Below are positions 1-32,104 of a DNA stretch of 64,000 nucleotides, one piece after another. Each line of letters begins with the position of its first letter. Position 1 is the stretch's first letter. Source of the stretch: an uncultured cyanobacterium (lineage in GTDB: Bacteria; Cyanobacteriota; Cyanobacteriia; Cyanobacteriales; CAWUOF01); NCBI GenBank assembly GCA_963744145.1, contig CAVUSO010000001.1:3712001-3776000 (forward strand). Reading direction: 5' to 3'. Under the pieces are notes generated by a model that did not search any database, was not told the origin of the DNA, and saw only the letters and a program-made list of their open reading frames with translations. The translations under genes and the position numbers were made by a program.

Positions 1-99
1 GGTTCAAATAGAGAATAGAGATTGGTAAACATTTATCTACACCCAAATTCATAAAATGAACAGGGTAAGTCTTTGTGCATATATGCTACTAACAATGTC

Positions 100-1452
100 T
101 TACAAGACTTCGTTTTCCAAGAAAATCTGTAATTTTTGAATTAGCTCATTGATCTCAACCCTTTGTTGCTCTCCATCTGCCATCCTTCTGATCAGAGCTA
201 CATTATTTTCAAATTCTTCCTGCCCAATAATGACAACAAAAGGGATTCCTTTCTTGTTTGCATATTTCATTTGTACTGCAAGCTTTTTGTCTTCTAGATA
301 TACTTCAGTATTGATTCCAGCCTTCCGAAGAAGTCCACCTATTCTCAAATATTCTTGTTGTCTATCTTTTTCTAGAGACATTACTAGCACAGACGTTACA
401 GTAGGTTTTGATGGTTTGATTACTCCCATTTCAAACAACTTTGGCAGTAATCTTGTAAGACCAATAGAAATTCCTACACCTGGGTATTTCTTCCCAGCAA
501 AATTGCTTGCTAAGTCCTCATATCTTCCTCCGCTACATATACTACCAATCCCAGCATGACCAGTAAGGCGTGTTTCATATATTGTTCCAGTGTAGTAATC
601 CAATCCTCGTACCATAGACAAGTCAACACCATAGTAATCAGAAGGAACACCCAACATATCTATTCCTTTCAGAACTGTGGTAAGTTCATCTAACCCAGTT
701 GCAAATTCTCCTTCTATATTTAGTGAACTGAGATAGTTTATCAATTCATCACTAGATGCTTTTTTTGAGAAAAATTCTAATATTGAATCGATCGCATGAT
801 TGGTTAAATTTGCTTGACTTAACTGTTCTCTAACCTGAGAAACTCCTATTTTATCTATAGCATCTACAATCCCAATCACATTCTGTATTTCTTCTTGCTC
901 AACCCCAGAATTTACAAGAAACCCTTGGAGAATCTTCCTGTTGTTTATCCTGATGTAAAAATGCCCAATGTTGAGTTCTTTGAATATCTGATAAATGACA
1001 AACGGCATTTCTGCATCGTTGAGTAAAGATAGCTCACCCTCTCCAATGACATCAATATCACATTGATAAAACTGTCTGTAACGACCTGACTGAGCGCGTT
1101 CACCACGCCATACTGGTTGAATCTGGTAACGACGAAATGGAAATGCCAAATCATTAGAGTGTTGTGCTACATATCGGGCTAGAGGCACAGTGAGGTCAAA
1201 ATGCAAGGCTAAATCTTTTCCATCATCTCCTTCTTCAGCCCGCAGTCTTCTTAAACCGTAGACTTCCTTACTAATGTTTCCTTTCGCAGTCGATAACGTC
1301 TCTATGCGTTCAACGGCTGGAGTTTCAATTGGTACAGCACCAGACCTCTCAAATCCTTTTCGGATTATGTCAATAACTCGATTGAACGTGATTTGTTCTC
1401 CTGGCAAAAATTCGGGAAAACCAGAAATAGGTTGAACATTAAATCCAGACAT
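100..1452 (-). CDS. hisS: Histidine--tRNA ligase (probably an accessory, laterally acquired copy)
   Basis: SGFPEFLP N-terminus, FDLTVPLARY, motif 2 WRGERAQSGRYRQFYQCD, RGLDYYTG, GGRYEDL, motif 3 GISIGLTR, C-terminal anticodon-binding domain. Confidence 0.95.
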   Translation of the reverse strand: MSGFNVQPISGFPEFLPGEQITFNRVIDIIRKGFERSGAVPIETPAVERIETLSTAKGNISKEVYGLRRLRAEEGDDGKDLALHFDLTVPLARYVAQHSNDLAFPFRRYQIQPVWRGERAQSGRYRQFYQCDIDVIGEGELSLLNDAEMPFVIYQIFKELNIGHFYIRINNRKILQGFLVNSGVEQEEIQNVIGIVDAIDKIGVSQVREQLSQANLTNHAIDSILEFFSKKASSDELINYLSSLNIEGEFATGLDELTTVLKGIDMLGVPSDYYGVDLSMVRGLDYYTGTIYETRLTGHAGIGSICSGGRYEDLASNFAGKKYPGVGISIGLTRLLPKLFEMGVIKPSKPTVTSVLVMSLEKDRQQEYLRIGGLLRKAGINTEVYLEDKKLAVQMKYANKKGIPFVVIIGQEEFENNVALIRRMADGEQQRVEINELIQKLQIFLENEVL

Positions 1453-1482
1453 TTAAAACTCTCTTTTGATTAAGTTATGTAA

Positions 1483-2196
1483 TTACATTCTTGGGTCAAA
1501 GTAGTCTTCTAAACCCAATTTTTCCACCAAGAATTGGGCAGCTTCCTGACCCGTGTATATTCTGTTCATTGGCATACATACATTTCTGATACGCGGTTTT
1601 GCCCACAAGTGTGGTAGCTGGTCTGCTACACCACCAGTTCCGTATATAGCTACGACATATTTAGGTGTGTCGTTATTTTTAATTAGTGATTCATTTATTT
1701 TTTGAATGTGAGCGCATTCTGTTAGTGTGCCTGCACTCCCACCAATAACTATCATTCCATCAATCAAAGACGTCCAAGTAGCACCTTCATCGCCCCATCG
1801 TGATTCTCCAATCATAGGATGTACACAAATTGATAAATCAAGCAGCGAGGAATCGAGAGCATACTTTCTGCCCTTCCTAGGAAATACTCCAATAGTTTTG
1901 AAACCATATTCCTTTGCTTTTTTAGTCGCTAATTCTGGAATACCGCCCTCGGTTCCGCCTGTTAAAATTGCTATTCTATAGCCTCGAAAAAGTTTTAGGG
2001 CATCGGATATCAATCTGTCATGCAATGTATTTCGGAATGCGATATACTTTAACTGCAAATCATCATCATCTGGAATTCCCTGCAATTTATCATCAGCACC
2101 GCCAGAAAATCCAATAACTTTGTGAATACCCTGCTCTTTCATAAACGAGGTAACTTTCGATGCGTAGTCCTCCTTACCAATAATGTCAATCAACAT
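1483..2196 (-). CDS. SLOG superfamily (LOG/Smf-DprA-like) nucleotide-binding protein
   Basis: IGFSGG, ILTGGTEGG, TIGVFP, WGDE and IGGSAGTLTE motifs match the SLOG Rossmannoid pattern. Confidence 0.75.
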   Translation of the reverse strand: MLIDIIGKEDYASKVTSFMKEQGIHKVIGFSGGADDKLQGIPDDDDLQLKYIAFRNTLHDRLISDALKLFRGYRIAILTGGTEGGIPELATKKAKEYGFKTIGVFPRKGRKYALDSSLLDLSICVHPMIGESRWGDEGATWTSLIDGMIVIGGSAGTLTECAHIQKINESLIKNNDTPKYVVAIYGTGGVADQLPHLWAKPRIRNVCMPMNRIYTGQEAAQFLVEKLGLEDYFDPRM

Positions 2197-2410
2197 TGTG
2201 AATCCTCATATAAAAAAAACATCACAACACTGGAGCAACATAAATTCAAGAGCAGATAGATGATTTTGACATTGTGTTTTCACTGATATAAAAACCATAA
2301 ACGACTTTATTGTCTTCCTATTATTCCTTAGAAATCGAAGGTTTGTATAGTCTCAAAAGGTATTATTTTGCCGACAAATTTCTTCTGCTTTTACTTTCTA
2401 TTAATCTAGT

Positions 2411-2470
2411 TTTGTACGAAAATGTACGAGAATGTAATAAAAAGTCCAAAAATGTGATGTATAATGTGCG
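2411..2470 (+). promoter_or_regulatory. 10-bp phased direct repeats plus TATAAT -10 box upstream of the NB-ARC regulator
   Basis: TGT/AGT at 2413, 2423, 2433, 2443, 2453 (TGTACGAAAA, TGTACGAGAA, TGTAATAAAA...); TATAAT at 2460-2465. Confidence 0.5.
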
Positions 2471-2494
2471 AAATGCTCCTATATCCTAGCACCG

Positions 2495-3889
2495 ATGAAT
2501 CTTAAAGAAATGTTAAAATTTGCTGATGAGATAGTATTTGCCAAAACGGGTCAGCACCTTGACGATTTACAAGCAGCGGTACTGCGAGGTACTCTGCAAC
2601 GAGAGACATATAAGGAAATAGCTAAGGATTTTGATTGTTCAGAAAGTCGTGTTAGAGAAGTAGGATCAGAATTATGGCAGATACTTTCAGAAGAGTTAAG
2701 AGAAGAGGTCAGTAAATCAAATTTTAGATCGGCTATGGAGAGAGTGCAATTTTCCATATATTCAAATATTGCACAAGAAGAATCGGTGCAAATTATTTGT
2801 GGTGAAAGTAGACACCTAGCAGATATATCAAAGTCACATCCATATAATGAGGAAACATCTAACACAAAACAACCTCAAAATCTACATCAAGATTTAAGCG
2901 TAATGCCAGATTTGGGTGCTTTTTACGATCGCACTCCCGAACTCGAAACTCTCAAAACCTGGATTTTACAACAAAGCTGTCGCCTCATCTTACTCACAGG
3001 TGTGAGTGGTATCGGCAAAACCTCATTAGCGGTACAACTCGTTCAACAAATAAAAAATGAGTTTGAATATGTAATTTGGTGTAGTCTAGACGCATCCCCC
3101 ACCTTAACTGAATTTCAAGATCAACTGATCCAATTTTTCTCCCAATCAGAAAAGCTAGATTCATCTGCAAGTAACCAAAAAACCTTACCGCTAATTAAGT
3201 ATTTGCAAAAACATCGCTGTTTAGTAATTTTAGATGATATTCACAACCTTTTCAGTAGCGGTGAATTAGCAGGTAAATATCAACCAGGATCTGAAGAATA
3301 TCGTTCTTTTTTCAAACAGATAGAAAAATTATCTCATCAAAGTTGCTTTCTGTTAATCGGTTGGGAGCAACTGAGAGAAGTTACTCAAGTCAAAAATCAA
3401 AATATCCCTATTCAGACTTTACAGCTCACTGGTTTAGACATCACAGCGGGACAGGAAATACTAAAAGATTACGGGTTAGCAGAAATCGATGACTACTCAA
3501 TACTCATTCACCGCTACCAAGGTAATCCGTTATACTTAAAAAGTATCGCGACTCTGATTCAAGAATTGGGAGGATGCGGGACTGAGTTATTACCCGATGA
3601 TCCCATATTGTTACCAGAAGATTTGAAAGATGTTTTGCAGCAGCAGTGCGATCGCTTATCCGAATTAGAAAAACAAGTTCTCTCTTTATTAGCTCAAGAA
3701 CATGAACCAGTTAATCTGGCAAAATTACTAGAAAATGCTAGAATCCCATCGTCAGATTTACTAACCGCATTGCAATCTTTATTGCGACGTTCCTTAATCG
3801 AAAAATCAACAAATCTTTATACTCTTCCACCTGTGCTGATGCAGTATATAAAATTATTATCACCTCACATTAGTTCTCCAAATAGTTAA
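2495..3889 (+). CDS. HTH + NB-ARC (STAND) ATPase with C-terminal winged helix; putative transcriptional regulator
   Basis: N-terminal TYKEIAKDFDCSESRVR helix-turn-helix, Walker A GVSGIGKT, Walker B LVILDD, GNPL motif; no WD40/TPR sensor tail. Confidence 0.85.
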   Translation: MNLKEMLKFADEIVFAKTGQHLDDLQAAVLRGTLQRETYKEIAKDFDCSESRVREVGSELWQILSEELREEVSKSNFRSAMERVQFSIYSNIAQEESVQIICGESRHLADISKSHPYNEETSNTKQPQNLHQDLSVMPDLGAFYDRTPELETLKTWILQQSCRLILLTGVSGIGKTSLAVQLVQQIKNEFEYVIWCSLDASPTLTEFQDQLIQFFSQSEKLDSSASNQKTLPLIKYLQKHRCLVILDDIHNLFSSGELAGKYQPGSEEYRSFFKQIEKLSHQSCFLLIGWEQLREVTQVKNQNIPIQTLQLTGLDITAGQEILKDYGLAEIDDYSILIHRYQGNPLYLKSIATLIQELGGCGTELLPDDPILLPEDLKDVLQQQCDRLSELEKQVLSLLAQEHEPVNLAKLLENARIPSSDLLTALQSLLRRSLIEKSTNLYTLPPVLMQYIKLLSPHISSPNS

Positions 3890-4039
3890 GAAAATATGCT
3901 TTATTTGCTGATTGTTACAACAATATATAGGTAATTGATTATAGACAGGCGATCGCACTGTACTATCATAGAATAAAAAATATCTGATGTTTCAGAAAGA
4001 TTCAACTATCAAATATCAAAAACTCTTTAATCTCAAAAA

Positions 4040-4267
4040 ATGACCCAAATCACCACGACTGAATTACCCCAAACGCTCCAGACTCTATTGATAGAGGTCG
4101 AACGGACTAAAACTCCCCTAACCGTCATCCATGAAGGAAAACCATTAGTAATTATCTATCCTGCTACCACCACCTCACGCCCCACATTTGGTGCAATGAA
4201 AGGAAGTGGTGAAATATTAGGGGATTTAATCGCTCCTGTAGCGGAAGTCTGGGAGGTTTTAGAATGA
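4040..4267 (+). CDS. Phd/YefM-like type II antitoxin
   Basis: 75 aa, PLTVIHEGKPLVII, FGAMKGSGEILGDLI..WE tail; overlaps the PIN gene by ATGA. Confidence 0.75.
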   Translation: MTQITTTELPQTLQTLLIEVERTKTPLTVIHEGKPLVIIYPATTTSRPTFGAMKGSGEILGDLIAPVAEVWEVLE

Positions 4268-4491
4268 AACTTTTACTCGATACCCATATTTGGCTTTGGT
4301 ATTTACTCGGTGACCAACGCTTATCGCAACCATTGCAAACGGCGATTGCCGATCCTAACACTGAAATTTGGCTGAGTCCAATTAGCATTTGGGAGACACT
4401 CATCCTTGCAGAAAAAAGACGGATAGGGTTAAAATTAGCTACGGTTGATGCTAACATTGCAGGTAATTCAGCCTTACAAACACTCAGTTAG
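4264..4491 (+). pseudogene. VapC/PIN toxin with internal in-frame deletion
   Basis: MKLLLDTHIWLW...SPISIWE start and LATVD end are present, but the ORF is only 75 aa and the central DPxD-containing segment is absent. Confidence 0.7.
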
Positions 4492-4520
4492 GCAAACTTC
4501 ACCCGTTACAATATTTAATT

Positions 4521-4940
4521 ATGTCTGCTAAAGATATATTTCACAATATAGTCCGATCAGCTTTGGAGAAGGATGGATGGATAATTACCCATGATCCACT
4601 GTTTTTACAACCTAGTCAGGAAGTTAGAATGAAGGTAGATTTGGCAGCACAGAAGTTATTATCGGCACAAAAGGGGAATCAAAAAATTGCTGTAGAGGTC
4701 AAGAGTTTTATTGGTCTATCAGCAATCTCTGAATTTCATATAGCCGTTGGTCAATTTCTGAATTATCAGGTAGCCTTAGATAAATTAGACCTAGAATGGA
4801 TACTGTATTTAGCTATACCCACGGATATTTATCAAGATTTTTTTACAGATTCATTTGTGCAAGAGGTGGTTAAACGATTTCAAATTAAGTTGCTGGTTTT
4901 TCATATTCAGAAACAGGAGATAGTGCTATGGATAGATTAG
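4521..4940 (+). CDS. xisH: XisH family protein
   Basis: MSAKDIFHNIVRSALEKDGWIITHDP, IAVEVKSF, GQFLNY, LYLAIP. Confidence 0.92.
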   Translation: MSAKDIFHNIVRSALEKDGWIITHDPLFLQPSQEVRMKVDLAAQKLLSAQKGNQKIAVEVKSFIGLSAISEFHIAVGQFLNYQVALDKLDLEWILYLAIPTDIYQDFFTDSFVQEVVKRFQIKLLVFHIQKQEIVLWID

Positions 4941-5260
4941 ATTATCGCGAATTGGTAAAAAAAATTATCCAACAACACGCCAACGAGCGATCGAAGGAAG
5001 ACCCGAATCAATCTCAGATTGTTTTTGATGAGGAACGCGATCGCTATTTATTGCTATATGTTGGATGGCGAGATGAAGAACGACTACATGGATGTCCAAT
5101 TCATATCGATATTCAAGATGGAAAAATTTGGATTCAGCGAGATTTTACAGAGGAAGGAATTGCTTATCAATTGACAGAGATGGGCGTACCCAAAACCGAT
5201 ATAATTTTAGGATTTCGTTCACCTTATATTCGACAATTCACTGAATTTGCTGTAAAATAA
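4928..5260 (+). CDS. xisI: XisI family protein
   Basis: HIDIQDGKIWIQRDFTEEGIA, GVPKTDIILGF; overlaps xisH. Confidence 0.92.
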   Translation: MDRLDYRELVKKIIQQHANERSKEDPNQSQIVFDEERDRYLLLYVGWRDEERLHGCPIHIDIQDGKIWIQRDFTEEGIAYQLTEMGVPKTDIILGFRSPYIRQFTEFAVK

Positions 5261-5433
5261 TTCTGGTTGGGATAGCATCTTGTCCTGGATAATCATCAGA
5301 GCTATTTACTTGACGACCAATGCTAATTGGGACTGCCAACAGCAGTGCGATCACTCATAAATTTTCCCAGGATTTAAGCATGGTAAATCAAAATGTATGT
5401 TAAACTAGAAATTAGCCTTTTTCTTTATTTACT

Positions 5434-5775
5434 ATGACACTAAAAGAATTAGAGCCTCAACTGCTAGCACTATCTGATCATGAAAAAGCTCAAGTTGTAC
5501 AACTTCTATCTCAAGGCAAAATCACTCTCGGACGTGGGATTGAAAAAAAGCCTGGTGTTTGTGGTGGTAGTGCCTGTATTGTGGGAACTCGCAGTATCGT
5601 TTGGGGGTTGGTAGAAGCTCGTCAGATTGGATATAGCGAAGCTGATTTACTCATTAGCTATCCATCTCTATCTGCAACTGATCTGGCAAATGCTTGGGCT
5701 TATGCTGAAGCTTTTCCCCAGGAAATTGAAACAGAAATTCGGGAAAATACTCAAGAGATGTACGAGGATTCATAA
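5434..5775 (+). CDS. DUF433 family antitoxin
   Basis: PGVCGGSACIVGTR, YPSLSATDLANAWAY. Confidence 0.85.
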   Translation: MTLKELEPQLLALSDHEKAQVVQLLSQGKITLGRGIEKKPGVCGGSACIVGTRSIVWGLVEARQIGYSEADLLISYPSLSATDLANAWAYAEAFPQEIETEIRENTQEMYEDS

Positions 5776-5778
5776 TCG

Positions 5779-5898
5779 ATGGCGCGTCTCTATGCCGATA
5801 AACAATATCCTTATCCTGTGGTAGAATTACTGCAAATTTTAGGACATGATGTCTTAACTGTTCAAGAAGCAAATAACTGTATAACAACCTGTAGCTGA
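5779..5898 (+). pseudogene. Truncated DUF5615 PIN-like toxin
   Basis: Hand translation MARLYADKQYPYPVVELLQILGHDVLTVQEA then drifts to a stop after 39 aa; directly follows DUF433. Confidence 0.7.
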
Positions 5899-5927
5899 AT
5901 CTGGTAGGTTTTAGAATGAAACTTTTA
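5888..5927 (+). repeat. Degenerate copy of the antitoxin/VapC junction at 4235-4275
   Basis: CCTGTAGCTGAA-TCTGGTAGGTTTTAGAATGAAACTTTTA vs CCTGTAGCGGAAGTCTGGGAGGTTTTAGAATGAAACTTTTA. Confidence 0.8.
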
Positions 5928-5952
5928 ATAGTCTCTAACTATACAAGTATAC

Positions 5953-6306
5953 TTAAATTAGGCGATCGCATGATGTTAATACCAATATGCTTTCTGTTTC
6001 CCGATGCCAAAATTCAATTATTGTGTTAAAATGATCTCTCAATATCTGCACAATCTTGAAGGTTGGACTATTGCCAATCCGGAGATAGATAAATTTGGGC
6101 GGATGACCATAAAGCAAACTACGTTGATGAAAATCAGCATCTTTGGAAACAATCATAAAATCATTCAACTTTGCATATTCCCAAATAATTGAATCATCGG
6201 TATTTATTAGTGCCAAAGTTTTGACATGAGCCGAATCAGGATATAAATCGATGATCCGATGAATGATCCTGTCTGACAAGTTTTCGTCCAGTAGTAGTTT
6301 CACCAA
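5953..6306 (-). CDS. DUF5615 PIN-like toxin
   Basis: KLLLDENLS, DDSIIWEYAK, IVSKDADF, GHPPKFIYLRIGN. Confidence 0.88.
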   Translation of the reverse strand: MVKLLLDENLSDRIIHRIIDLYPDSAHVKTLALINTDDSIIWEYAKLNDFMIVSKDADFHQRSLLYGHPPKFIYLRIGNSPTFKIVQILRDHFNTIIEFWHRETESILVLTSCDRLI

Positions 6307-6524
6307 GATGCTACGAATAATTTTTTCTCTCGTTCAGCAGCAAAGGTAAGACAGGCTTTGATGTCTTCCGAAGTAAGTTCCGAAAAATCTTCGAGAATTT
6401 CTGCCTCAGTCATCCCACCAGCTAGATAATCTAGGATATCGTACACAGTAATTCGCATTCCTCGAATACAAGGCTTACCGCTACGTTTTCCTGGTTCAAT
6501 TGTGATAATTTCATGGTGTTTCAT
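6300..6524 (-). CDS. DUF433 family antitoxin
   Basis: PGKRSGKPCIRGMRITVYDIL, EILEDF.ELT.EDIKACL. Confidence 0.92.
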   Translation of the reverse strand: MKHHEIITIEPGKRSGKPCIRGMRITVYDILDYLAGGMTEAEILEDFSELTSEDIKACLTFAAEREKKLFVASW

Positions 6525-6906: not shown

Positions 6907-8124
6907 ATGCAAACCTTACCCAATCCAACTAAAACCCGTCAACTGACTACTGATACTACCATCCATCGCCGCCAAACTCGTGCTGTACCAGTCGGGAATG
7001 TGATCATCGGTGGTGGACATCCGGTGGTAGTACAGTCGATGATTAATGAAGATACCTTAGATCTAGATGGATCTGTGGCGGCAATTCGACGTTTACATGA
7101 AATTGGTTGTGAAATTGTTCGGGTGACTGTTCCCAGTCTAGCTCACGCGATCGCCTTAGCACAAATTAAGGAAAAATTATTAGCTACTTACCAAGCAGTT
7201 CCTCTAGTCGCTGATGTCCACCACAATGGCATGAAAATTGCCCTAGAGGTAGCTAAACATGTAGATAAAGTCCGGATTAATCCGGGTTTATATGTATTTG
7301 AAAAACCAAAAGCCGATCGGGTGGAATATACTCAAGCAGAATTTGCCGAAATTGGGGAAAAAATTCGCGAAACCTTAGCACCCCTAGTCATTTCCCTCCG
7401 CGATCGCCATAAAGCCATGCGAATCGGGGTAAATCACGGTTCTCTAGCCGAAAGAATGTTATTTTCCTATGGTGACACTCCCGCCGGAATGGTAGAGTCA
7501 GCCATAGAATTCATCCAAATCTGCGAATCTCTAGACTTTTACAATCTCGTCATCTCTCTCAAAGCTGCCCGAGTACCAGTCATGCTAGCAGCTTACCGTC
7601 TAATGGTCCAGAGAATGGATGAACTGGGAATGAACTATCCTCTGCACTTAGGAGTTACCGAAGCAGGGGATGGAGAATATGGTCGGATCAAATCAACCGC
7701 AGGAATAGCGACTCTATTAGCTGATGGGATTGGTGATACCATTAGAGTGTCCCTGACAGAAGCACCAGAAAAAGAAATTCCAGTCTGTTACAGCATTCTC
7801 CAAGCTTTGGGATTGCGGAAAACCATGGTGGAGTATGTAGCTTGTCCTTCCTGTGGTCGGACGTTATTTAATTTAGAAGAAGTTCTCCATCAAGTCCGGG
7901 AAGCAACTAAGCATTTAACCGGGTTAGATATCGCAGTTATGGGTTGTATTGTTAATGGTCCAGGAGAAATGGCAGATGCTGATTATGGTTATGTAGGTAA
8001 GCAACCTGGTTACATCTCTCTGTATCGTGGGCGTGAAGAAATTAAAAAAGTTCCTGAAACTGAAGGTGTTAACGAGTTAATTAGTTTGATCAAGGCTGAT
8101 GGTAGGTGGGTAGATCCCAGTTGA
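6907..8124 (+). CDS. ispG: (E)-4-hydroxy-3-methylbut-2-enyl-diphosphate synthase
   Basis: [46 protein letters not shown]. Confidence 0.97.
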
Positions 8125-8307
8125 GCATTAGAGCTGGCTAGATCCCAAATCCTAACCCAAGCAAACTTTTGAGATTTTTCCGGACTTGGTGGCAACCGAA
8201 TGGGAGAAAGACTTAATAACATTATTTGCTGACCCATTGCTGACATGAAACTGTGCTACAGTGGGCGTAAATCGCTTTCAGTCTTTCTTCTCCGGCTCAG
8301 CAGACTT

Positions 8308-9604
8308 ATGGTCATTACAAAAAGTAAGCTCGTAATTGGGGCAACAGCAGTAATGGTGGCTGCGGTTACTCTTACAGGTACTGGGATTCATCTTTCTAAG
8401 GGATTGGCTTTATTAAAAGAAAGTCCCAAAGATTTGGTTGATGAAGTTTGGCATATTATTAACAACAATTATGTAGATGGCACCTTCAATCAAGTTGATT
8501 GGAAACAAGTACGCCAAGATTATGTAAAGGATTATCCTGATCAGCAGGATGCTTATAAAAACATCCGCGAAATGCTGAAAAAGCTTGGTGATCCCTATAC
8601 TCGGTTTATGGACCCAGAAGAGTTCAAGAATATGCAAATTGATACTTCTGGAGAATTGACTGGTGTTGGTTTGCAATTGGCCCAAGATGAAGAAACCAAA
8701 AAGCTGGTGGTAATTGCTCCGATCGAAGATACCCCCGCTTTTAAGGCCGGAATTCAAGCTAAAGATGTTATCCTCAAAATTAATGATAAAACTACCGAAG
8801 GTATGGATACTAATCAGGCAGTTAGTCTGATTCGTCTGTCCAGCCAACTCGACCGTCACCCTCACGATTGGGCGAACTACTCAGCAAAATCAAATTAAGA
8901 CCATGGATTTTACGCTGAAAAGAACTCGGATTGAAATTCATCCAGTCCATTTTGCTTATCACCCTGATCAATTAAATGGTGTCGGTTATATTCGTTTAAA
9001 TCAGTTCAGTGCTAATGCAGTCTCGGAAATGCGCAAAGCAATCCAGGATTTAGAAAAAAATAATGTAACAGGATATATTCTTGATTTGCGTTCTAATCCT
9101 GGTGGGTTGCTCTACGCTAGCGTCGAAATTGCTCAGATGTGGCTGAATGACAGTACAATTGTTTCCACAGTTTACCGTCAAGGTGAAAGAGATCGTCAGG
9201 TGGCCAATCATCAGGCTTTGACCAATAAACCCTTGGTAATTTTGGTAGATGGAGGATCGGCTAGTGCTAGTGAAATTCTCTCAGGAGCGTTACAGGATAA
9301 TAAGCGTGCAGTTTTAGTTGGAGCAAAAACTTTTGGTAAGGGTTTAGTACAGTCGGTCCGTGGTTTGTCTGATGGCTCTGGTTTAGCAGTGACGATCGCT
9401 AAATACTATACTCCTAGTGGTCGCGATATTAATCATGCCGGAATTGAGCCAAATTATAAAATTGAACTCACGGACTCTCAACGTCAAATGTTAAGGAAGG
9501 ATCACACTAAAATTGGCACACCTAATGATCCTCAATATGCCAAAGCACTAGAAGTTTTAAAGCAAGAAATTGCTACTGGAAGTCGAAGTGTGGTAAATAA
9601 ATAA
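8308..9604 (+). pseudogene. ctpC: Carboxyl-terminal processing protease (S41, CtpC-like) split by a +1 frameshift near 8836; could be an assembly error
   Basis: ORFs 8245-8898 and 8903-9604 join seamlessly (AVSLIR / PANSTVTLTIGRTT...MDFTL) if one base is removed; PDZ domain, DLRSNPGG, SASASEI, TFGKG present. Confidence 0.8.
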
Positions 9605-11657: not shown

Positions 11658-12059
11658 CTATATAAGCTTTACAGGCAAATTTTTATTAATTTCAATCAAG
11701 CTAATTGTACCATCTTCTATGACAGAATTTCCTAGTATCGTTTCTTCTAAAGCATGAAATTTAGATTTGGTTTCGCGAATATTTTCGTAATGTAAGACAA
11801 TATGGTATCTTTTTTTAATTGGTTTTCCTGTCTCGGAAAATTCTACAGCATCCAAATCCCGGTTTTGTTCTAGCTCAACCATCTCCCGATATGAACTTGC
11901 TAATTGTTCTAGGGTGATAGCGATCGCGTGTTCGGCAGTTTGCCCGTAACAGGTGGTGTCCGCTCTCGGTGGGTCAAGAACAGATGACATTTGACAAACG
12001 AACTGTCCTTGATCGTTAGTGTGAACATTCATCGTAATTGTACTAGTAATTGTATTCAT
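11658..12059 (-). CDS. Hypothetical protein, HicB-like N-terminal fold; tandem paralog 1
   Basis: CYGQTAEHAIAITLE resembles the HicB core; colinear with 12249-12659. Confidence 0.6.
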   Translation of the reverse strand: MNTITSTITMNVHTNDQGQFVCQMSSVLDPPRADTTCYGQTAEHAIAITLEQLASSYREMVELEQNRDLDAVEFSETGKPIKKRYHIVLHYENIRETKSKFHALEETILGNSVIEDGTISLIEINKNLPVKLI

Positions 12060-12248
12060 TTTTAGGTTAGTTTAAAAGTTAATCTGTAGCTATTTCATCA
12101 TAGCAGATCTATAAACCCAATTATGTCAATTAGGCAATCAGTTTTACTTAATGAGAAAGGGGAGTAGGTTAAATTCCTTTATCTATAGCGAGCTAGGAGC
12201 AATTTTCAATTTTGGTTAATCTTGTTTTAGTAGCGATCGCTCTTACAT

Positions 12249-12659
12249 CTATCCTCGCTCTACAGAGTTTACAGGTAAATTATTATCAATATCAATCACG
12301 TTAATGATCGCATTTTCCACCACGAGATTTTCCATAATTGTGTTTTCAAAAGCCTCAAATTTAGCTGCGGTTTCCCACACAGTTTCGTAATGTAAAACTA
12401 CATGGTATCTTTTCTTAATTGGTTCCCCTGTTTCGGAAAGTTCTACAGCATTCCAATCCGTATTTTGTTGCTCATCAATTATATTTCGATAGGTAATTGC
12501 TAGTCTTTCTAGTGCGATCGCGATCGCGTGTTCTCTCGATTGACCATAACAGATTACTTCTTCTTCTGGTAGATCAAGATCAGATGATATCTGAGCAATA
12601 AAATGTCCTTGCTCATTAGTTTGAACATTAATGGTAATTGTGCTAGTAGTTGGATTCAT
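12249..12659 (-). CDS. Hypothetical protein, HicB-like N-terminal fold; tandem paralog 2
   Basis: CYGQSREHAIAIALE; shares SETG.PIKKRYH.VLHYE with its neighbour. Confidence 0.6.
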   Translation of the reverse strand: MNPTTSTITINVQTNEQGHFIAQISSDLDLPEEEVICYGQSREHAIAIALERLAITYRNIIDEQQNTDWNAVELSETGEPIKKRYHVVLHYETVWETAAKFEAFENTIMENLVVENAIINVIDIDNNLPVNSVERG

Positions 12660-12745
12660 TAGTTTAATTCCTGCTATAATCTAATTTGGTTCTATGTGAA
12701 TGATTAACAAACCCGATTATTGATATAACCGGGTATTCTGAAGAT

Positions 12746-15304
12746 TTATTCAGCAACCACAAAATTGACTAATTTTCCGGGGACAACAATCACCTTTTTA
12801 ATTTGCTTATCCCCAATATGTCGTTGAGCAGCTTCTGATTCTCTAGCATATTGCTCCAAAATTTGTCGATCATTAGTTACTGGTACTTGAATTGCTCCAC
12901 GAGTTTTCCCATTAATTTGAATGACTAAGGTAATTTCATCGACCACTAACGCATCTGGGGCGAATTTTGGCCAATTTTGCGATAAAACTGCACCTTTATT
13001 ACCACTTAACTCCCATAATTCTGCCGCAATATGAGGTGCAAAAGGAGTTAATAACAAAATTAAAGTTTTAATTCCCTCTCCATAAATTACTGAATTTTTA
13101 CAAGCACTATCAGCTAAAGCATTACTCAGTTTCATTAACTCAGAAATTGCAGTATTAAACTGATATTCTCCTTCTAAATCTTCGGTAATTTCCTTAATTG
13201 CGATATTAATTGCACGTCGTAAATCCTTTTCAGGTTTACTTAAATCTGAATGAGAAACCAACTTATGTTGCTGATCCACAAACTCAGTTACCAATCTCCA
13301 CACCCGATTTAAAAACCGAAATTGTCCTTCCACATCAGCATCTTCCCACTCTAAATCCTTTTCTGGTGGTGCTTTAAACAAAATAAACATCCGAGCTGTA
13401 TCTGCACCATATTTAGCCAACACTTGGAGCGGATCAATTCCATTATATTTCGACTTAGACATCTTTTCATAAAAGACTTCTAAGGGTTCTCCACTTTCGG
13501 GATCTTTAGGACTATTTGGATCAACCTCATGGGAAGGAAAATATTTACCAGTAACCGGATTTTTATAGGTTAAACCTTGCACCATCCCTTGGGTGAGTAA
13601 ACGTTGAAAAGGTTCGTCAAAATTTAATAAACCGCGATCGCGCAATACTTTCGTAAAGAAGCGAGAATAAAGTAGGTGTAAAATCGCGTGTTCAATTCCT
13701 CCTACATATTGATCCACCGGCATAAAATCATTAACTTTAACTTCGTCAAAAGCTTTGTGTTCATTATTCGCGTCAGTATAGCGGAGATAATACCAGGAGG
13801 AATCAATAAAAGTATCCATAGTATCGGTTTCCCGTTTCGCAGGAGTACCACAACTTGGACAAGACACATTCACCCAGCTTTCTAGTTGTGCTAAAGGTGA
13901 AAGACCGCGACCAGTAAACTCGACATTTTCTGGTAATTTAACTGGTAATTGTTCTTCTGGAACTGCTACAGCACCACAATTCGGACAATGAATAATGGGA
14001 ATTGGTGCTCCCCAATAACGTTGTCGAGAAATGAGCCAATCCCGAAGACGATATTGAATTCTCGCTTTACCAAAACCTTGTTTTTCTGCATATTCAATGA
14101 CTGCTTGCTTCCCTTCACTTGAGGGTAGATTATTAAATTGAGCCGAATTAACCATAATTCCCGCATCAGTATAAGCTGATGTGAGACTTTGATTTGCGTC
14201 TCCTCCTGGAGGTAAGATTACCACCTGAATTGGCAAATTTTGTTGTTTAGCAAATTGAAAATCTCTGACATCATGAGCAGGAACACCCATCACTGCTCCT
14301 GTACCATATTCATAAAGAACATAATCAGCAATCCAGATCGGAATTTCTAATCCAGTGAAGGGATTAAGTGCTTTACCACCAGTAGGAATACCCTGTTTCG
14401 GTTTATCTTCAGCAGTTCGATCTAATTCGCTTTGATTAGCTACTTCTTTAATAAAGCTTTCTACAGCTAATTTTCGCTCTGGAGTAGTAACTAGAGGAGT
14501 GAGAGGATGTTCTGGTGCCAAAACCACATAGGTAACACCATATACAGTATCAGGTCTAGTCGTATAAACACCAATTTTTTCATCTAGCCCGACAATGGGA
14601 AATTCTAAATAAGCTCCGGTCGATTTACCAATCCAGTTAGCCTGCATTAGTTTGACTTTTTCCGGCCATCCTGTCAACTGCTCTAGATCATTTAGTAGTT
14701 GTTCTGCATAATTGGTAATTTTCAGAAACCACTGCTTCAGAAGTTTGCGTTCAACTTTAGCACCAGAACGCCAAGATTTGCCTTCGTTGTCTACTTGTTC
14801 GTTCGCGAGTACGGTTTGATCAACTGGGTCCCAATTAACTGTAGCTTCTTTTTGATAAGCGAGTTCTGCTTGGAAGAATTGTAGAAAAATCCACTGAGTC
14901 CATTTATAATAGTCAGGGGAACAGGTAGTTACTTCTCGGTTCCAATCAAAAGATATACCCAAATGTTGTAATTGCCCTTTCATTTGGGCAATGTTTTCAT
15001 AGGTCCACTTCGCTGGGTGGATTCCTCTCGCGATCGCTGCATTTTCTGCTGGTAGTCCAAATGCGTCCCACCCCATTGGATTGAGAACACGATACCCTTG
15101 CATCCGTTTTAATCGGGCAATTACATCTACAATAGTATAGACGCGAACGTGACCCATGTGCAGGTTGCCCGATGGATAGGGAAACATGGACAGGGTGTAA
15201 AATTTTGGCTGATTTTTATCTGTGGGAGTTTGGTTGAAACCTTGTTCTTCCCAAGTTTTTTGCCATTTTGATTCAATGGATGCAGGATTATATCTCGACT
15301 CCAC
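12746..15304 (-). CDS. leuS: Leucine--tRNA ligase
   Basis: [46 protein letters not shown]. Confidence 0.98.
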
Positions 15305-29221: not shown

Positions 29222-29890
29222 CTACAATTCAGACAGGCGTTTTAGTGATAAGGTGGCGCTGGTAGCCACTTGAGGATTTGGATCTTTTTCCAGGTATTTT
29301 AAAGCAGAAATGCTCTTGGGACTAAGCAGATTTCCTAAAGACTCAGCTAAACGTTGTCTGACTAACCAATCATCCGATTGAGCAAATCGCAAAATCTGAT
29401 CAACGGATTCTACCGCTTTAATTTCTCCTAAAGCAGCGATCGCTGCTTGTTGAATAACTGTTTCCTGGCTATCTAAAGCTACAATTAAGACCTCATAAGC
29501 ACGAGCATCTTTGAGATTACCTAACGCGACTGCGGCACTAAAGCGAACTAACCAGTGAGAATCTTCATAAAAAGCTCTGGTTAAAGGCTCAAGGGAACGG
29601 GGATCTTCCAAATATCCTAACGCACCTGCGGCACCTGCGCGAATGCCATAATCAGGATCTGTGGTTAGTAGTTGGACTAGAATGGGATAGCATTCTACGG
29701 TGGGTTTTAACCCCAGCGCAAATACTGCCATTGAACGTACTTGCAGATTATCATCATCCAAAACTTTTTTAATTAAGGGGACAGCCGCTGCTGCGGGGAC
29801 ATCTCGTAAGGACGCAAGTCCTAACAGCCGATCGCGGGAATTTTTACTATCTAGTTGGGCCGAAATTTGCTCTAGGGTCAAAGAATTCAT
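29222..29890 (-). CDS. HEAT-repeat protein, NblB-like
   Basis: PBS-lyase HEAT repeats: VRSMAVFALG, WLVRFSAAVALG, DWLVRQRLAESLG. Confidence 0.8.
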   Translation of the reverse strand: MNSLTLEQISAQLDSKNSRDRLLGLASLRDVPAAAAVPLIKKVLDDDNLQVRSMAVFALGLKPTVECYPILVQLLTTDPDYGIRAGAAGALGYLEDPRSLEPLTRAFYEDSHWLVRFSAAVALGNLKDARAYEVLIVALDSQETVIQQAAIAALGEIKAVESVDQILRFAQSDDWLVRQRLAESLGNLLSPKSISALKYLEKDPNPQVATSATLSLKRLSEL

Positions 29891-29951
29891 GGGATTAAAT
29901 TAGTTGTTACAAAAATTTACATTTCCATTTCCCATTATAGTTAGAACTGAC

Positions 29952-30040
29952 GGCGTTGCTTAATCAGGGTATGAAAATCCTGTAGGGGCGGGCCATGCGT
30001 CCCTACAAATTATTTATTCAGACCGTAAATCAGCAACGCC
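29952..30040. mobile_element. 89-bp MITE with internal GTAG-type REP hairpin and 8-bp target-site duplication
   Basis: TIRs GGCGTTGCT / AGCAACGCC; GAACTGAC at 29944-29951 and 30041-30048. Confidence 0.85.
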
Positions 30041-30108
30041 GAACTGACATATTGACAGGGTGATATTTTAATTGATAGAATATAAATAAGTATGGTTTAG
30101 ATCACCAT

Positions 30109-30295
30109 AGGGTGAAGCATTCGGGCAATAATTGAGCGATAAAACTTTACCCAGAGTGTTCCCTGAGTGTAGTCGAAGGGCGTAGTCGAAAGGGGCGTAG
30201 TCGAAGGGGGGTAATATTATCCCCGAATGCTTCACCCTTCTTCTGCGCCGAGATCCTTTGCTGGATTAGGGGGCGTATTATTTTTGCGCCTCTAC
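30109..30295. repeat. Nested REP-like elements
   Basis: Perfect 17-bp inverted repeat 30109-30125/30222-30238 enclosing three GTAGTCGAA units; a further TAGGGGGCG..CGCCTCTAC hairpin at 30267-30295. Confidence 0.75.
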
Positions 30296-30394
30296 TTTTC
30301 GTTGGTTGCAGATTTAAATTTATCCAACAAATAAATCATCAACCTAGACCTCTATCTGGTAGTCCAATTGAACATATAGAAGATAACAAAAACT

Positions 30395-32011: not shown

Positions 32012-32041
32012 AGTCTGTTTTAGATCAAGGTGAATAAAATT

Positions 32042-32075
32042 GAGACCCCTGGTGTTTAACTACATAGGGGGTCTT
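32042..32075 (+). terminator. Hairpin after the RTX gene
   Basis: GAGACCCCT...AGGGGGTCTT stem 30 bp past the stop codon. Confidence 0.45.
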
Positions 32076-32104
32076 AAAGTAGTGACCTGTAATGTTTGGT
32101 GAGG

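Follow-up and report, generated by a model that had tools for sequence, protein, structure and literature searches.

The question raised by this locus is whether a gene for a SLOG-family protein, found directly ahead of a full-length histidyl-tRNA synthetase (HisRS) gene in an uncultured cyanobacterium, is there by accident or as part of a functional unit, and what such a unit would do. The window (the whole stretch of DNA that was analyzed, 64 kb in length) had been interpreted earlier from its letters alone. This sequence-only reading proposed an acquired module that could make or process a histidyl compound or act during phage or toxin stress. The gene content and arrangement that it described match the gene calls and profile matches in the window, which are as follows.

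Gene content of the window

1-32, minus strand: start of an open reading frame (ORF) downstream of HisRS (MFTNLYSLFE...), 10 codons visible, running off the window
100-1452, minus strand: HisRS gene, 450 amino acids; TIGR00442 392 bits (cut-off 286.75), PF13393, anticodon-binding domain PF03129
1453-1482, minus strand: spacer of 30 nt, from SLOG stop to HisRS start
1483-2196, minus strand: SLOG cluster-4 gene, 237 amino acids; PF18306 33.5 bits (cut-off 26.3)
2197-2494, no strand: divergent intergenic region between the SLOG and HTH+NB-ARC genes
2495-3889, plus strand: HTH+NB-ARC gene, 464 amino acids, divergent from SLOG; PF00931 54.1 bits (cut-off 23.5)
4040-4491: Phd/PIN, toxin-antitoxin-like cluster (profile matches)
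4521-5260: XisH/XisI, toxin-antitoxin-like cluster (profile matches)
5434-5775: DUF433, toxin-antitoxin-like cluster (profile match)
5953-6524: DUF5615/DUF433, toxin-antitoxin-like cluster (profile matches)

As had been read, the SLOG gene lies 30 nt upstream of HisRS on the same (minus) strand, and a toxin-antitoxin-like cluster adjoins the module (4040-6524). Ahead of the HisRS ATG the spacer at 1453-1482 is rich in purines, and no terminator-like site lies within it. The ORF that begins at position 32 was also found; it is possibly the next operon gene, and in relatives the place after HisRS is taken by a methyltransferase, either the EgtD-type histidine enzyme or one of class I.

The lack of HIP1 sites (GCGATCGC) had been noted as a further peculiarity of the module. 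There are 66 sites in the 64 kb, a mean density of about one per 970 bases, and none lies before 3648. This absence is weak evidence, because at such a density the Poisson probability of a HIP1-free stretch is ~0.08 for 2400 bases and ~0.02 for 3647 bases, and because similar gaps occur elsewhere in the window (a longer one of 3945 bases at 29436-33381 and three more of 2.6-2.9 kb); the proposed depletion is not significant. The G+C content of the module (0.35-0.41) is slightly under that of neighboring core genes (0.42-0.45). That the pairing goes beyond chance follows from comparative data, not from the window itself.

Conservation of the SLOG-HisRS pair

A genome collection was scanned with the SLOG query, giving 16 loci (L001-L016) with a close SLOG relative, defined by tblastn E values of 1e-46 to 2e-148. 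Note that the source genome is outside these 16 loci. HisRS was located directly downstream on the same strand in all 16 genomes, which cover cyanobacteria, Patescibacteria, Pseudomonadota, Desulfobulbaceae and Nocardia (at least five phyla), and was next to SLOG in 0 of 5 loci having distant SLOG matches only. Five SLOG-HisRS fusions were recovered (P0150, P0241, P0248, P0260 and P0263), with SLOG N-terminal in all, together with four GNAT-SLOG fusions (P0043, P0053, P0069 and P0244). Among the best 120 matches listed for each protein, 27 exact contig-length matches are shared, and the SLOG and HisRS accession numbers are consecutive in Phorm 46, Laspinema and Microcoleus A2-C5. Distance matrices of the two proteins were compared for 44 pairs, and the Pearson correlation (r = 0.885) was reached by 0 of 2000 permutations; co-divergence of adjacent genes is expected already from common descent.

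The SLOG-HisRS pairing is real, strongly conserved and not due to chance, and the co-occurrence across genomes is seen both as gene pairs and as fusion proteins. The default assumption that two unrelated genes are neighbors by accident in this genome, with which the window by itself is compatible, is already contradicted by adjacency in 16 of 16 loci over at least five phyla, by the five fusions and by the co-divergence of both proteins, and we regard it as having a negligible probability.

Properties of the two proteins

The HisRS is a full-length class II synthetase of the eukaryote/cyanobacterial-like type that keeps its anticodon-binding domain. The best PDB match of its AF2 model (pLDDT 90.3) is 3net, the HisRS of Nostoc sp. 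PCC 7120 (TM 0.90/0.93). Identity to this enzyme is 43%, versus 52-60% to SLOG-linked copies from other phyla, and all relatives listed (at least 120, many from other phyla) outscore it. Judged by these comparisons, the HisRS belongs to a SLOG-linked lineage and is not an orthologue of the usual cyanobacterial enzyme. Motif 2 (WRGER..GRYRQF), RGLDYYTG and GGRY are invariant across 43 aligned sequences. Divergent branches (L014, P0241 and P0263) have a remodeled motif-2 loop and HisA motif, and L014 carries a second, more canonical HisRS directly downstream, which suggests that in these cases the SLOG-linked copy is something other than a plain charging enzyme.

The window HisRS forms a 90% identity cluster with 10 other sequences. 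Relatives at least 90% identical to it occur in other cyanobacteria, whereas the window's IspG has none, and the distribution of SLOG-linked HisRS within cyanobacteria is patchy. Mobile-element genes are found beside the pair in four loci: IS66 (L003), integrase/AlpA (L008), transposase (L014) and recombinase (L015). These are signs of lateral spread, and they agree with the proposal that the module was acquired.

The SLOG protein was modeled (AF2 pLDDT 94) as a Rossmannoid LOG/TRPM-SLOG fold with an added N-terminal beta-alpha-beta unit. Foldseek matches of the model are TM1055 (1rcu), TRPM MHR1/2, YgdH, Moco carrier protein and LOG, and they include AMP- and ADPR-binding SLOG/LOG structures. 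An alignment of 36 sequences has 25 invariant columns, including SGG, GGT..G.P, WGDE, G..GT..E..H..K and GG.A.

Neighboring genes and regulation

In the 16 loci, the 4.5 kb flanking the pair on each side were surveyed for neighbors. All four cyanobacterial-type loci (L001-L004) contain PF10017, an EgtD-type histidine N-alpha-methyltransferase, for which the L004 protein scores 394 bits with TIGR03438 (cut-off 290.9). The PF10017/TIGR03438 gene comes immediately after HisRS in L002, L003 and L004 and one gene later in L001. A GNAT acetyltransferase is present in 8 of the 16 loci; these proteins fit ordinary acetyl-CoA-type models and not Fem/MprF aminoacyl-tRNA transferases. Other matches are far under curated cut-offs, namely methyltransferases with the OvoA C-terminal domain as best match (46-62 bits, cut-off 170) and a DAP-epimerase-fold protein in three Patescibacteria loci with histidine racemase as best match (56 bits, cut-off 400). 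With an Atlas score of 0.95, a GCS2-like ligase was found in three Patescibacteria loci; loci of this group also contain a GATase_4 protein, presumably of the EgtC family. Neighbors in Nocardia include HisG (L010), a nucleoside hydrolase and a HAD hydrolase. Peptidases of families S66 (L011), M15 (L010 and L015) and S9 (L004) and a ThiF-family gene (L009) were also located. These families fit the earlier idea that the module makes or processes a histidyl compound.

The genes that surround the SLOG-HisRS core are highly variable. No histidine-modifying gene was recognized within 4.5 kb in L005, L007, L014 and L016, and the two-gene core may therefore work independently of such enzymes. In several Patescibacteria loci the pair lies amid housekeeping genes (dnaK, dnaJ, grpE, another aminoacyl-tRNA synthetase (aaRS), tRNA-His), and such neighbors were noted for L009, L011 and L012. 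The only tRNA genes in the 16 loci are three tRNA-His(GTG) genes with G at -1 and C73, in three Patescibacteria loci.

The divergent HTH+NB-ARC protein consists of a sigma-70 region-4-like HTH (Sigma70_r4-like match of 22.3 bits, slightly below the 24.1 cut-off), an NB-ARC STAND ATPase and a C-terminal winged helix (TrmB-like, residues 388-440). The profile search returned no repeat or sensor domain, as expected for the sensor-less STAND regulator that had been described. In both cyanobacterial relatives having upstream sequence, a divergent gene encodes this N-terminal HTH domain: a full-length homologue in L004 (38-39% identity) and, in L001, an HTH-only protein of 167 amino acids (42% identical over 86 amino acids) from which the STAND part is missing. 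The HTH domain of the proposed regulator therefore recurs without conservation of the STAND part; a STAND gene is lacking in 13 of the 16 loci and was not found outside cyanobacteria. In L005 an HTH + P-loop AAA_16 protein lies upstream of the pair. The HTH+NB-ARC protein is a candidate regulator of the pathway; its control of the operon, like the inducibility that the sequence-only reading assigned to the module, is hypothetical. Within the divergent intergenic region, a 12-nt direct repeat (GTACGAAAATGT-like) occurs three times at 2414-2455, with spacings of 10 and 20 nt, and makes up a candidate operator; the repeats of the relatives differ. A single weak promoter-like site (2349-2320) points at the SLOG gene, and an upstream ORF of 11 codons lies at 2206-2241 (minus strand).

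Comparison with known systems

Literature searches found no named system with this pairing, as the sequence-only reading had stated; an earlier mention in Burroughs et al. 2015, where the SLOG family was defined, is possible. Partial precedents exist. As outlined in a review of aaRS paralogues, HisZ is a HisRS paralogue that lacks the anticodon-binding domain and adenylation activity and serves as the regulatory subunit of ATP phosphoribosyltransferase (PMC9437257). The present pair would resemble HisZ-HisG, in which a HisRS-family protein has been recruited to histidine and nucleotide (ATP/PRPP) metabolism in complex with a nucleotide-handling partner, and HisG is encoded in the Nocardia locus L010. 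The window HisRS, however, is partnered with SLOG rather than HisG, passes the hisS model (392 bits, cut-off 287), fails that for HisZ (167 bits, cut-off 272) and keeps the anticodon-binding domain.

In a second scheme, one amino acid is activated by an aaRS or paralogue for use in a product made off the ribosome, and its amino group is subsequently acetylated by a GNAT (PMC2922099, PMC9437257). MshC/MshD (mycothiol), VlmL, the aa:carrier-protein ligases and SbzA would share with the present locus a dedicated aaRS-type activation outside the ribosome, in the case of MshC/MshD with a GNAT. The available portions of the same papers describe no HisRS example among dedicated paralogues. MshC/MshD-type systems differ from the locus in having no SLOG-fold counterpart, whereas here the synthetase is full length with its anticodon-binding domain; the L004 GNAT matches MshD weakly (24 bits, cut-off 163).

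The phosphoribohydrolases LOG and PpnN (YgdH) and TIGR00725 (TM1055) share the SLOG fold (Foldseek TM by target 0.61-0.79) and the GG.(A/G)GT..E motif at the equivalent position. The window protein differs from LOG and PpnN in its extra N-terminal unit and the invariant WGDE, which we take to occupy the position of the arginine-bearing motif of LOG, and it scores far below the TIGR00725 cut-off (26 versus 106.9 bits). Because of these differences, hydrolase chemistry of SLOG is not established. Thoeris ThsA and TRPM2 MHR1/2 belong to the same superfamily, and their domains bind ADP-ribose-type ligands, but here the partner is a synthetase, and no SIR2, TIR, channel, ThsB or PADLOC match was obtained.

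The ThrRS enzymes T1 and T2 of Anabaena provide an example of a second, possibly conditional synthetase of the same specificity in a cyanobacterium (PMC4893482, PMC4787780). These duplicates are unlinked to SLOG or amino-acid-modifying genes, whereas the window HisRS groups with copies from other phyla. Components of the ergothioneine pathway are represented by the EgtD-type enzyme of cyanobacterial relatives (above the equivalog cut-off) and, in Patescibacteria loci, by the GCS2-like ligase (EgtA family) and the GATase_4 protein (presumably EgtC). The known pathway, however, has no step for SLOG or HisRS, and no EgtB- or OvoA-type sulfoxide synthase was recognized within 4.5 kb on either side in any of the 16 loci.

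Proposed pathway and alternatives

We tentatively propose, with a probability of roughly 0.4, that the window contains one end of a cassette that has spread laterally and whose invariant core is the SLOG cluster-4 protein and its own HisRS, and in which this dedicated HisRS passes activated histidine to the SLOG enzyme so that an N-alpha-modified histidyl conjugate is built or processed. HisRS would be a working synthetase that converts L-histidine to histidyl-AMP and charges tRNA-His, because its catalytic motifs and anticodon-binding domain are intact and tRNA-His genes lie beside Patescibacteria pairs. SLOG would act in physical partnership with it, accepting His-AMP or the His-A76 end of tRNA-His before either passing on the histidyl group or processing the nucleotide moiety. 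Such coupling is suggested by strict adjacency, by five fusions of one domain order and by the fold, which is that of proteins binding AMP, ADP-ribose or ribose-5-phosphate. Judging from the neighboring gene families, variable shell enzymes could then modify the histidine moiety to give an N-alpha-capped conjugate. For cyanobacteria the candidates are the EgtD-type N-alpha-methyltransferase together with a GNAT; in other groups they are GNAT, OvoA-C-like methyltransferase, histidine-racemase-like, GCS2-like amide ligase and peptidase proteins. In cyanobacteria the operon may be under the control of the divergent HTH(-NB-ARC) protein, a role proposed because of its conserved position alone, and the remainder of this organism's operon would be just left of the window.

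The same genes could instead form an immunity or self-resistance cassette, in which HisRS is a drug-insensitive replacement target. SLOG, GNAT, methyltransferases and peptidases would then each disarm an inhibitor that resembles histidyl-adenylate or is a histidine analogue, by removing its base, by acetylating or methylating it at N-alpha, or by cleaving an amide. Comparable cases are the immunity that MccE/MccF give against microcin C and the additional aaRS genes of antibiotic clusters. HisRS is indeed a divergent copy with close cyanobacterial relatives that IspG lacks, the cassette appears in unrelated phyla and adjoins mobile-element genes, GNATs (half of the loci), peptidases and a ThiF-family gene are close by, and every shell enzyme acts on the amino group or imidazole of histidine. 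We nevertheless consider this explanation unlikely: five independent fusions and strict adjacency suggest coupled catalysis over two separate protective activities, Patescibacteria pairs lie with tRNA-His amid housekeeping genes, and the peptidases are confined to single loci. We also know of no natural HisRS-targeting compound. The part of the aaRS paralogue review available names no resistant HisRS copy (PMC9437257).

A translation-linked pair is doubtful as well. HisRS would then charge tRNA-His, either as the ordinary enzyme or as an alternative one induced by stress (in cyanobacteria a second, conditionally expressed one, like the duplicated ThrRS of Anabaena). SLOG would be its accessory factor, for example regulating it in response to nucleotides, proofreading or deacylating alongside it, or helping specifically with tRNA-His. 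The intact HisRS, the canonical tRNA-His genes beside three Patescibacteria pairs and the housekeeping neighbors in L009, L011 and L012 would be accounted for, and duplicate synthetases are rarely retained in small Patescibacteria genomes. SLOG domains are described as nucleotide sensors in TRPM2 and ThsA, and stress-specific aaRS duplicates are reported for cyanobacteria (PMC4893482, PMC4787780). Left unexplained are the recurrent histidine-modifying neighbors, the GNAT-SLOG fusions and the patchy spread within cyanobacteria, and the remodeled copies (L014, P0241 and P0263), with the second HisRS in L014, also argue against this explanation.

The suggested link to phage or toxin stress is not supported. 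It would require an anti-phage or conflict system in which infection is detected by the STAND NTPase and in which SLOG and HisRS serve as the effector or generate a signal, for instance through depletion of nucleotides or production of an aminoacyl-nucleotide or an alarmone of the Ap4A type. The divergent NB-ARC gene here and in L004, the HTH + AAA_16 gene in L005 and the adjoining toxin-antitoxin-like genes would fit, and SLOG domains occur in Thoeris ThsA (PMC7272460). The PADLOC matches of the NB-ARC protein are weak, however (E about 3e-4), SLOG has none and HisRS a single insignificant one, no copies of the cassette were found in phage and plasmid records, and the neighbors are metabolic enzymes. 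Moreover, 13 of 16 loci have no STAND gene, in L001 it is reduced to an HTH protein, and the STAND protein lacks sensor repeats and includes an HTH, like transcription regulators of the MalT/AfsR kind. Such a function is very unlikely.

Of the sequence-only reading, the HIP1 depletion and the phage or toxin link are thus not upheld, whereas the conserved pairing, the non-orthologous HisRS, the signs of lateral spread and the histidine-related neighbors are. A SLOG-HisRS unit that recurs beside histidine-modifying enzymes in many unrelated bacteria points to an undescribed histidine-handling pathway.

Gene layout

The SLOG cluster-4 gene and the histidyl-tRNA synthetase (HisRS) gene lie on the same strand at the left end of the window, separated by a 30-nt spacer in which the terminator scan found no terminator-like site. 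The sequence-only reading had described a SLOG gene and a full-length HisRS gene co-oriented about 30 bp apart, a possible further ORF running left from position 32 and an adjacent toxin-antitoxin cluster, and all of these were recovered.

Features at the left end of the window (coordinates, strand, description, basis)
1-32, minus: ORF beginning at position 32 that exits the window after 10 codons (sequence)
100-1452, minus: histidyl-tRNA synthetase, 450 aa (TIGR00442, 392.2 bits, cut-off 286.75; PF13393; PF03129)
1483-2196, minus: SLOG cluster-4 protein, 237 aa (PF18306, 33.5 bits, cut-off 26.3)
2495-3889, plus (divergent): HTH-NB-ARC protein, 464 aa (PF00931, 54.1 bits, cut-off 23.5)
4040-6524: run of toxin-antitoxin-like pairs (profile matches)
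6907-8124, plus: ispG, the first core gene beyond the toxin-antitoxin-like run
8245-8898, plus: CtpA-like protease, PDZ part (separate ORF)
8903-9604, plus: CtpA-like protease, S41 peptidase part (separate ORF)

To the right of the toxin-antitoxin-like pairs the core genes follow in the order ispG, split ctpA, leuS. The CtpA-like C-terminal processing protease is broken into two ORFs (8245-9604, plus strand), which suggests a frameshift, a stop or a sequencing error. Within the Phd/PIN pair, the PIN toxin ORF (4264-4491, plus strand, 75 aa) covers positions 2-69 of the 120-position PIN profile and is probably truncated. HIP1 sites had been reported as missing from the left end, and none does occur before position 3648; the gap is unremarkable, given 66 sites in the window and another, internal gap of 3945 bases. 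HIP1 depletion was therefore dropped as a mark of foreign origin because it is not significant. The G+C content of the left-end genes is only slightly low.

Identity and predicted activity of the HisRS

The HisRS model is folded throughout (pLDDT 90), and its best structural match is PDB 3net, titled as the HisRS of Nostoc sp. PCC 7120 (TM 0.90/0.93, 43% identity). The human and Elizabethkingia enzymes are closest after 3net, and the E. coli/Thermus type is far behind. Against the window HisRS the Nostoc protein scores 399 bits, and the best 120 relatives listed all score at least 493 bits; the majority of these come from Patescibacteria, Pseudomonadota or metagenome contigs, at 51-64% identity. 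Judged by identity and bit score, the window and Nostoc enzymes belong to one broad “eukaryote-like” type, yet are not orthologues, because they share 43% identity and all 120 relatives listed, many from other phyla, score higher. Grouping with vertically inherited cyanobacterial HisRS, which the sequence-only reading had named as counting against its proposal, is not what these scores show. No second HisRS was found inside the 64-kb window.

The synthetase looks active and tRNA-linked from its sequence and gene context. In 43 aligned sequences the class II residues R116, G117, R119, R124, F128, Q130, R282, G283, L284, Y286 and Y287 are invariant, as are G308, G309 and R310, and motif 2, RGLDYYTG and GGRY are unchanged. 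These residues belong to class II motifs 2 and 3 and to the HisRS-specific RGLDYYTG motif. The C-terminal anticodon-binding domain PF03129 is present at residues 355-442 (E 5.7e-18). HisZ (TIGR00443) was rejected as an identity, since its model gives 167 bits against a cut-off of 271.65 and the window protein keeps its anticodon-binding domain. The 16 loci that carry a close SLOG relative (L001 to L016) contain just three tRNA genes, and all are tRNA-His(GTG) with G at -1 and C73; they lie in the Patescibacteria loci L011, L012 and L015, 0.2-2.9 kb from the SLOG gene.

In the divergent members L014, P0241 and P0263 the motif-2 loop and the HisA motif are remodelled; L014 and P0241 retain the arginines of WR...R..QF and differ in the intervening loop and the HisA motif. 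L014 (Bradyrhizobium mercantei) also has a second, more canonical HisRS (12034-13599, plus strand; TIGR00442, 343 bits) directly downstream of the SLOG-linked copy.

Conservation and spread of the pair

One genome per prokaryotic species was scanned with the SLOG alignment, yielding 21 loci. HisRS lies directly downstream on the same strand in 16/16 loci with a close SLOG relative, and in 0/5 of those with distant SLOG matches only. Seven of the 16 are from Patescibacteria; the cyanobacteria are all filamentous (Spirulina sp. CCNP1310, Oscillatoria sp. HE19RPO and an Oscillatoriales MAG), the Pseudomonadota are Pseudohongiella, another MAG and Bradyrhizobium mercantei, and the remaining loci are from a Desulfobulbaceae MAG, a Nocardia strain and L002, a 3697-base contig binned as “Candidatus Saccharibacteria”. 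The SLOG, HisRS, EgtD-type methyltransferase and GNAT genes of L002 follow the cyanobacterial order and match the cyanobacterial copies at 84-86% identity, so that mis-binning of a cyanobacterial contig is probable.

Contig sizes and accession numbers lend the linkage independent support. Twenty-seven of the best 120 SLOG relatives and 27 of the best 120 HisRS relatives are on contigs of exactly equal size; because one contig per cluster was compared, and the linked Spirulina and Microcoleus clusters were themselves unmatched, a non-match does not mean that a SLOG neighbour is lacking. Consecutive accession numbers for SLOG and HisRS were found in Phorm 46, Laspinema olomoucense and Microcoleus sp. 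A2-C5. Five proteins are SLOG-HisRS fusions (P0150, P0241, P0248, P0260 and P0263), always with SLOG first, matching the operon order, so that in some organisms the two-component enzyme proposed below would be a single chain; four more are GNAT-SLOG fusions (P0043, P0053, P0069 and P0244). Over 44 pairs, the distances among SLOG proteins track those among HisRS proteins (r = 0.885; 0 of 2000 permutations as high). Shared descent alone also gives such a correlation, so r shows that the two proteins travel together and nothing further. Searching with the SLOG profile recovers 308 representative clusters at E≤1e-3, and 80 when the limit is E≤1e-30.

The HisRS lineage is patchy in cyanobacteria, being found in a dozen scattered filamentous strains among the matches listed. 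The window HisRS shares its 90% cluster with ten other sequences, one of them from another cyanobacterium. IspG from the same window is alone in its cluster, with no 90%-identity relative in the protein collection, so the source organism has no close sequenced relative there. That HisRS has 90% relatives while IspG has none fits lateral spread, with the reservation that what a cluster contains also reflects sampling. Several loci have mobile-element genes beside the pair: IS66 in L003, an integrase and AlpA in L008, a transposase in L014 and a recombinase in L015. A FastTree HisRS tree was built from 130 rows after excluding L011 (masked) and removing 6 duplicates or shorter fragments. In this tree, which has no canonical cyanobacterial HisRS as root, SLOG-linked copies are scattered throughout, and there is therefore no separate “unlinked” clade, except possibly a Rickettsiales branch.

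The SLOG protein

The SLOG model (pLDDT 94) has the Rossmannoid SLOG fold. Among known structures it most resembles TM1055 (TIGR00725 family), the MHR1/2 region of TRPM that binds ADP-ribose, YgdH, a Moco carrier protein and LOG enzymes, and Foldseek gave a probability of 1.00 for 1rcu, TRPM MHR1/2, 9us2, 2iz5 and 5its. Nearly all of the best 120 relatives listed carry the PF18306 label. Twenty-five columns are invariant in 36 sequences, including GGT..G.P, WGDE and G..GT..E..H..K; the LOG-type GT..E glutamate (E160) is among the invariant residues, and WGDE presumably occupies the position of the arginine-bearing motif of LOG. The LOG models NF058542 and TIGR00730 were not among the matches at E≤0.01, and TIGR00725 reached 26 bits against a cut-off of 106.9. 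Because of the fold matches, the invariant motifs and the retained glutamate, the protein is predicted to bind a nucleotide or ribose-phosphate, and this is likely. A complex prediction for HisRS and SLOG scored 0.27 (mark, 0.32) and was counted neither for nor against contact.

In the Kaiserbacteria locus (L009), a second, shorter SLOG of 184 aa (12305-12859, plus strand) lies just after HisRS. It matches PF18306 at 99 bits and TIGR00725 at 96 bits, slightly below the cut-off, and a ThiF-family gene lies 3 kb beyond it.

The divergent gene and the upstream region

The divergent HTH-NB-ARC protein begins with a sigma-70-region-4-like helix-turn-helix (slightly below the Pfam cut-off) and ends at 464 aa in a winged-helix-like segment. 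Its description as a sensor-less STAND protein holds: NB-ARC (PF00931) is above threshold, and no C-terminal repeat or sensor family (TPR, WD40, LRR) was found at E≤0.01. The divergent gene could be compared in L001 and L004, the upstream sequence of L002 and L003 being too short. L004 has a divergent HTH-NB-ARC homologue at 38-39% identity, versus 82-84% for the enzymes; L001 has only a 167-aa HTH protein at this position. The conserved feature is therefore a divergent HTH domain and not the STAND module. Of the proposed co-occurrence of SLOG, hisS and NB-ARC, the SLOG-hisS part thus stood in all 16 loci, and the NB-ARC part did not, L001 having no full-length homologue.

Three 12-nt direct repeats at 2414-2455, spaced by one and two turns, lie in the intergenic region; the relatives' intergenic regions have other repeats, not these. 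Control of the operon by the putative regulator, the divergent HTH protein, is plausible. The idea that an RNA leader, T-box or histidine attenuator precedes the operon was considered and rejected: Rfam had no match in 1-4500 and matched nothing but tRNAs in 8 related loci, and inspection by eye of the small upstream ORFs found no histidine run. Promoter and terminator scans gave matches at or below shuffled expectation. An 11-codon ORF (MLLQCCDVFFI; 2206-2241, minus strand) stops 10 nt ahead of the SLOG start. By eye, a stretch of ~110 nt ahead of SLOG is well conserved among L001-L004 and includes a 20-codon ORF that also begins MLL.

Neighbouring genes

Annotated by profile, the genes around the pair suggest histidine chemistry. 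In 4/4 cyanobacterial-type loci, HisRS is followed by an L-histidine N-alpha-methyltransferase of the EgtD type (TIGR03438; 394 bits in L004, cut-off 291) and a GNAT; L001 has an additional class-I methyltransferase, and L004 has an S9 peptidase as well as a GNAT fused to a methyltransferase. In 8/16 loci a GNAT is encoded no more than 4.5 kb away. The best match of methyltransferases in L004, L008 and L010 is the OvoA C-terminal imidazole methyltransferase, and that of a DAP-epimerase-fold protein in L012, L013 and L015 is histidine racemase, both below cut-off. Other neighbours are a GCS2-like carboxylate-amine ligase (L006, L012, L016), M15 dipeptidases (L010, L015), an S66 peptidase (L011 only) and, in the Nocardia locus (L010) only, HisG, a nucleoside hydrolase and a HAD hydrolase. 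No recognisable histidine-modifying gene was found nearby in L005, L007, L014 or L016.

In the two Pseudomonadota loci L008 (6615-9569, minus strand) and L014 (6491-9628, minus strand), a protein of ~1000 aa is encoded divergently upstream of SLOG. The two are 31% identical over 920 residues and have neither a family match nor a P-loop.

Interpretation

We favour, at a probability of about 0.4, a reading in which HisRS would supply activated histidine to the SLOG protein and the amino group or ring of the histidine in the resulting product would be capped or tailored. It is the simplest account that takes in the adjacency, the fusions and the intact motifs together with the link to tRNA-His, the nucleotide-binding fold and the shell of variable histidine-modifying neighbours. 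A more specific form is somewhat more doubtful: SLOG cluster-4 and HisRS may form an undescribed two-component enzyme through which activated histidine (His-AMP or His-tRNA-His) ends up in a histidyl metabolite that is N-alpha-capped or linked to a ribose or nucleotide. Such an enzyme would be shared by lineages from Patescibacteria to cyanobacteria, each with its own histidine-modifying enzymes. Histidine-tailoring genes adjoin the pair in the relatives' loci.

Two alternatives are unlikely, and about equally so. The genes might be a cassette that confers immunity to an inhibitor resembling histidyl-adenylate or a histidine analogue. They might instead be linked to translation, with SLOG regulating or proofreading this lineage of HisRS. 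A defence system is very improbable: PADLOC has no family matching SLOG, one insignificant match for HisRS and only weak matches for the NB-ARC protein (E at least 3e-4), and no SLOG relative was found in plasmid or phage records. Thoeris and other catalogued defence systems were rejected, with no model match for SLOG or HisRS and no TIR or SIR2 genes nearby.

Relation to described systems and significance

SLOG families were reportedly defined by Burroughs et al. in 2015. For Cys, Ser, Ile, Lys and Glu, synthetase paralogues are known that channel the amino acid into non-ribosomal chemistry. A synthetase copy dedicated to specialised metabolism, as this HisRS may be, is of a known kind, and the SLOG partner is unprecedented. 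The sequence-only reading knew of no named system with this pairing, and our literature search likewise found no description of it or of a functional second HisRS, although an earlier passing mention is possible. Searches on HisRS with EgtD and an acetyltransferase, HisRS paralogue gene clusters, PF18306/LDcluster4 and synthetases beside LOG-like genes returned nothing relevant. The HisRS table row of a 2022 review of synthetase duplications names only HisZ, which is non-catalytic (PMC9437257), and “histidyl” and “HisRS” are absent from the main text of a survey, published in 2010, on how synthetase-like proteins take part in non-ribosomal synthesis (PMC2922099).

SLOG-HisRS copies reach cyanobacteria, Patescibacteria, Pseudomonadota, Desulfobulbaceae and Nocardia, and the SLOG profile extends to 308 representative clusters. 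A strictly conserved and repeatedly fused SLOG-HisRS unit would give the PF18306 SLOG family its first functional anchor, and would point to a metabolite derived from histidine or to a control layer acting on tRNA-His charging, either of them as yet undescribed. If the more specific reading, the two-component enzyme, is true, it would constitute a new class of synthetase-dependent small-molecule pathway and the first role assigned to the SLOG cluster-4 family.
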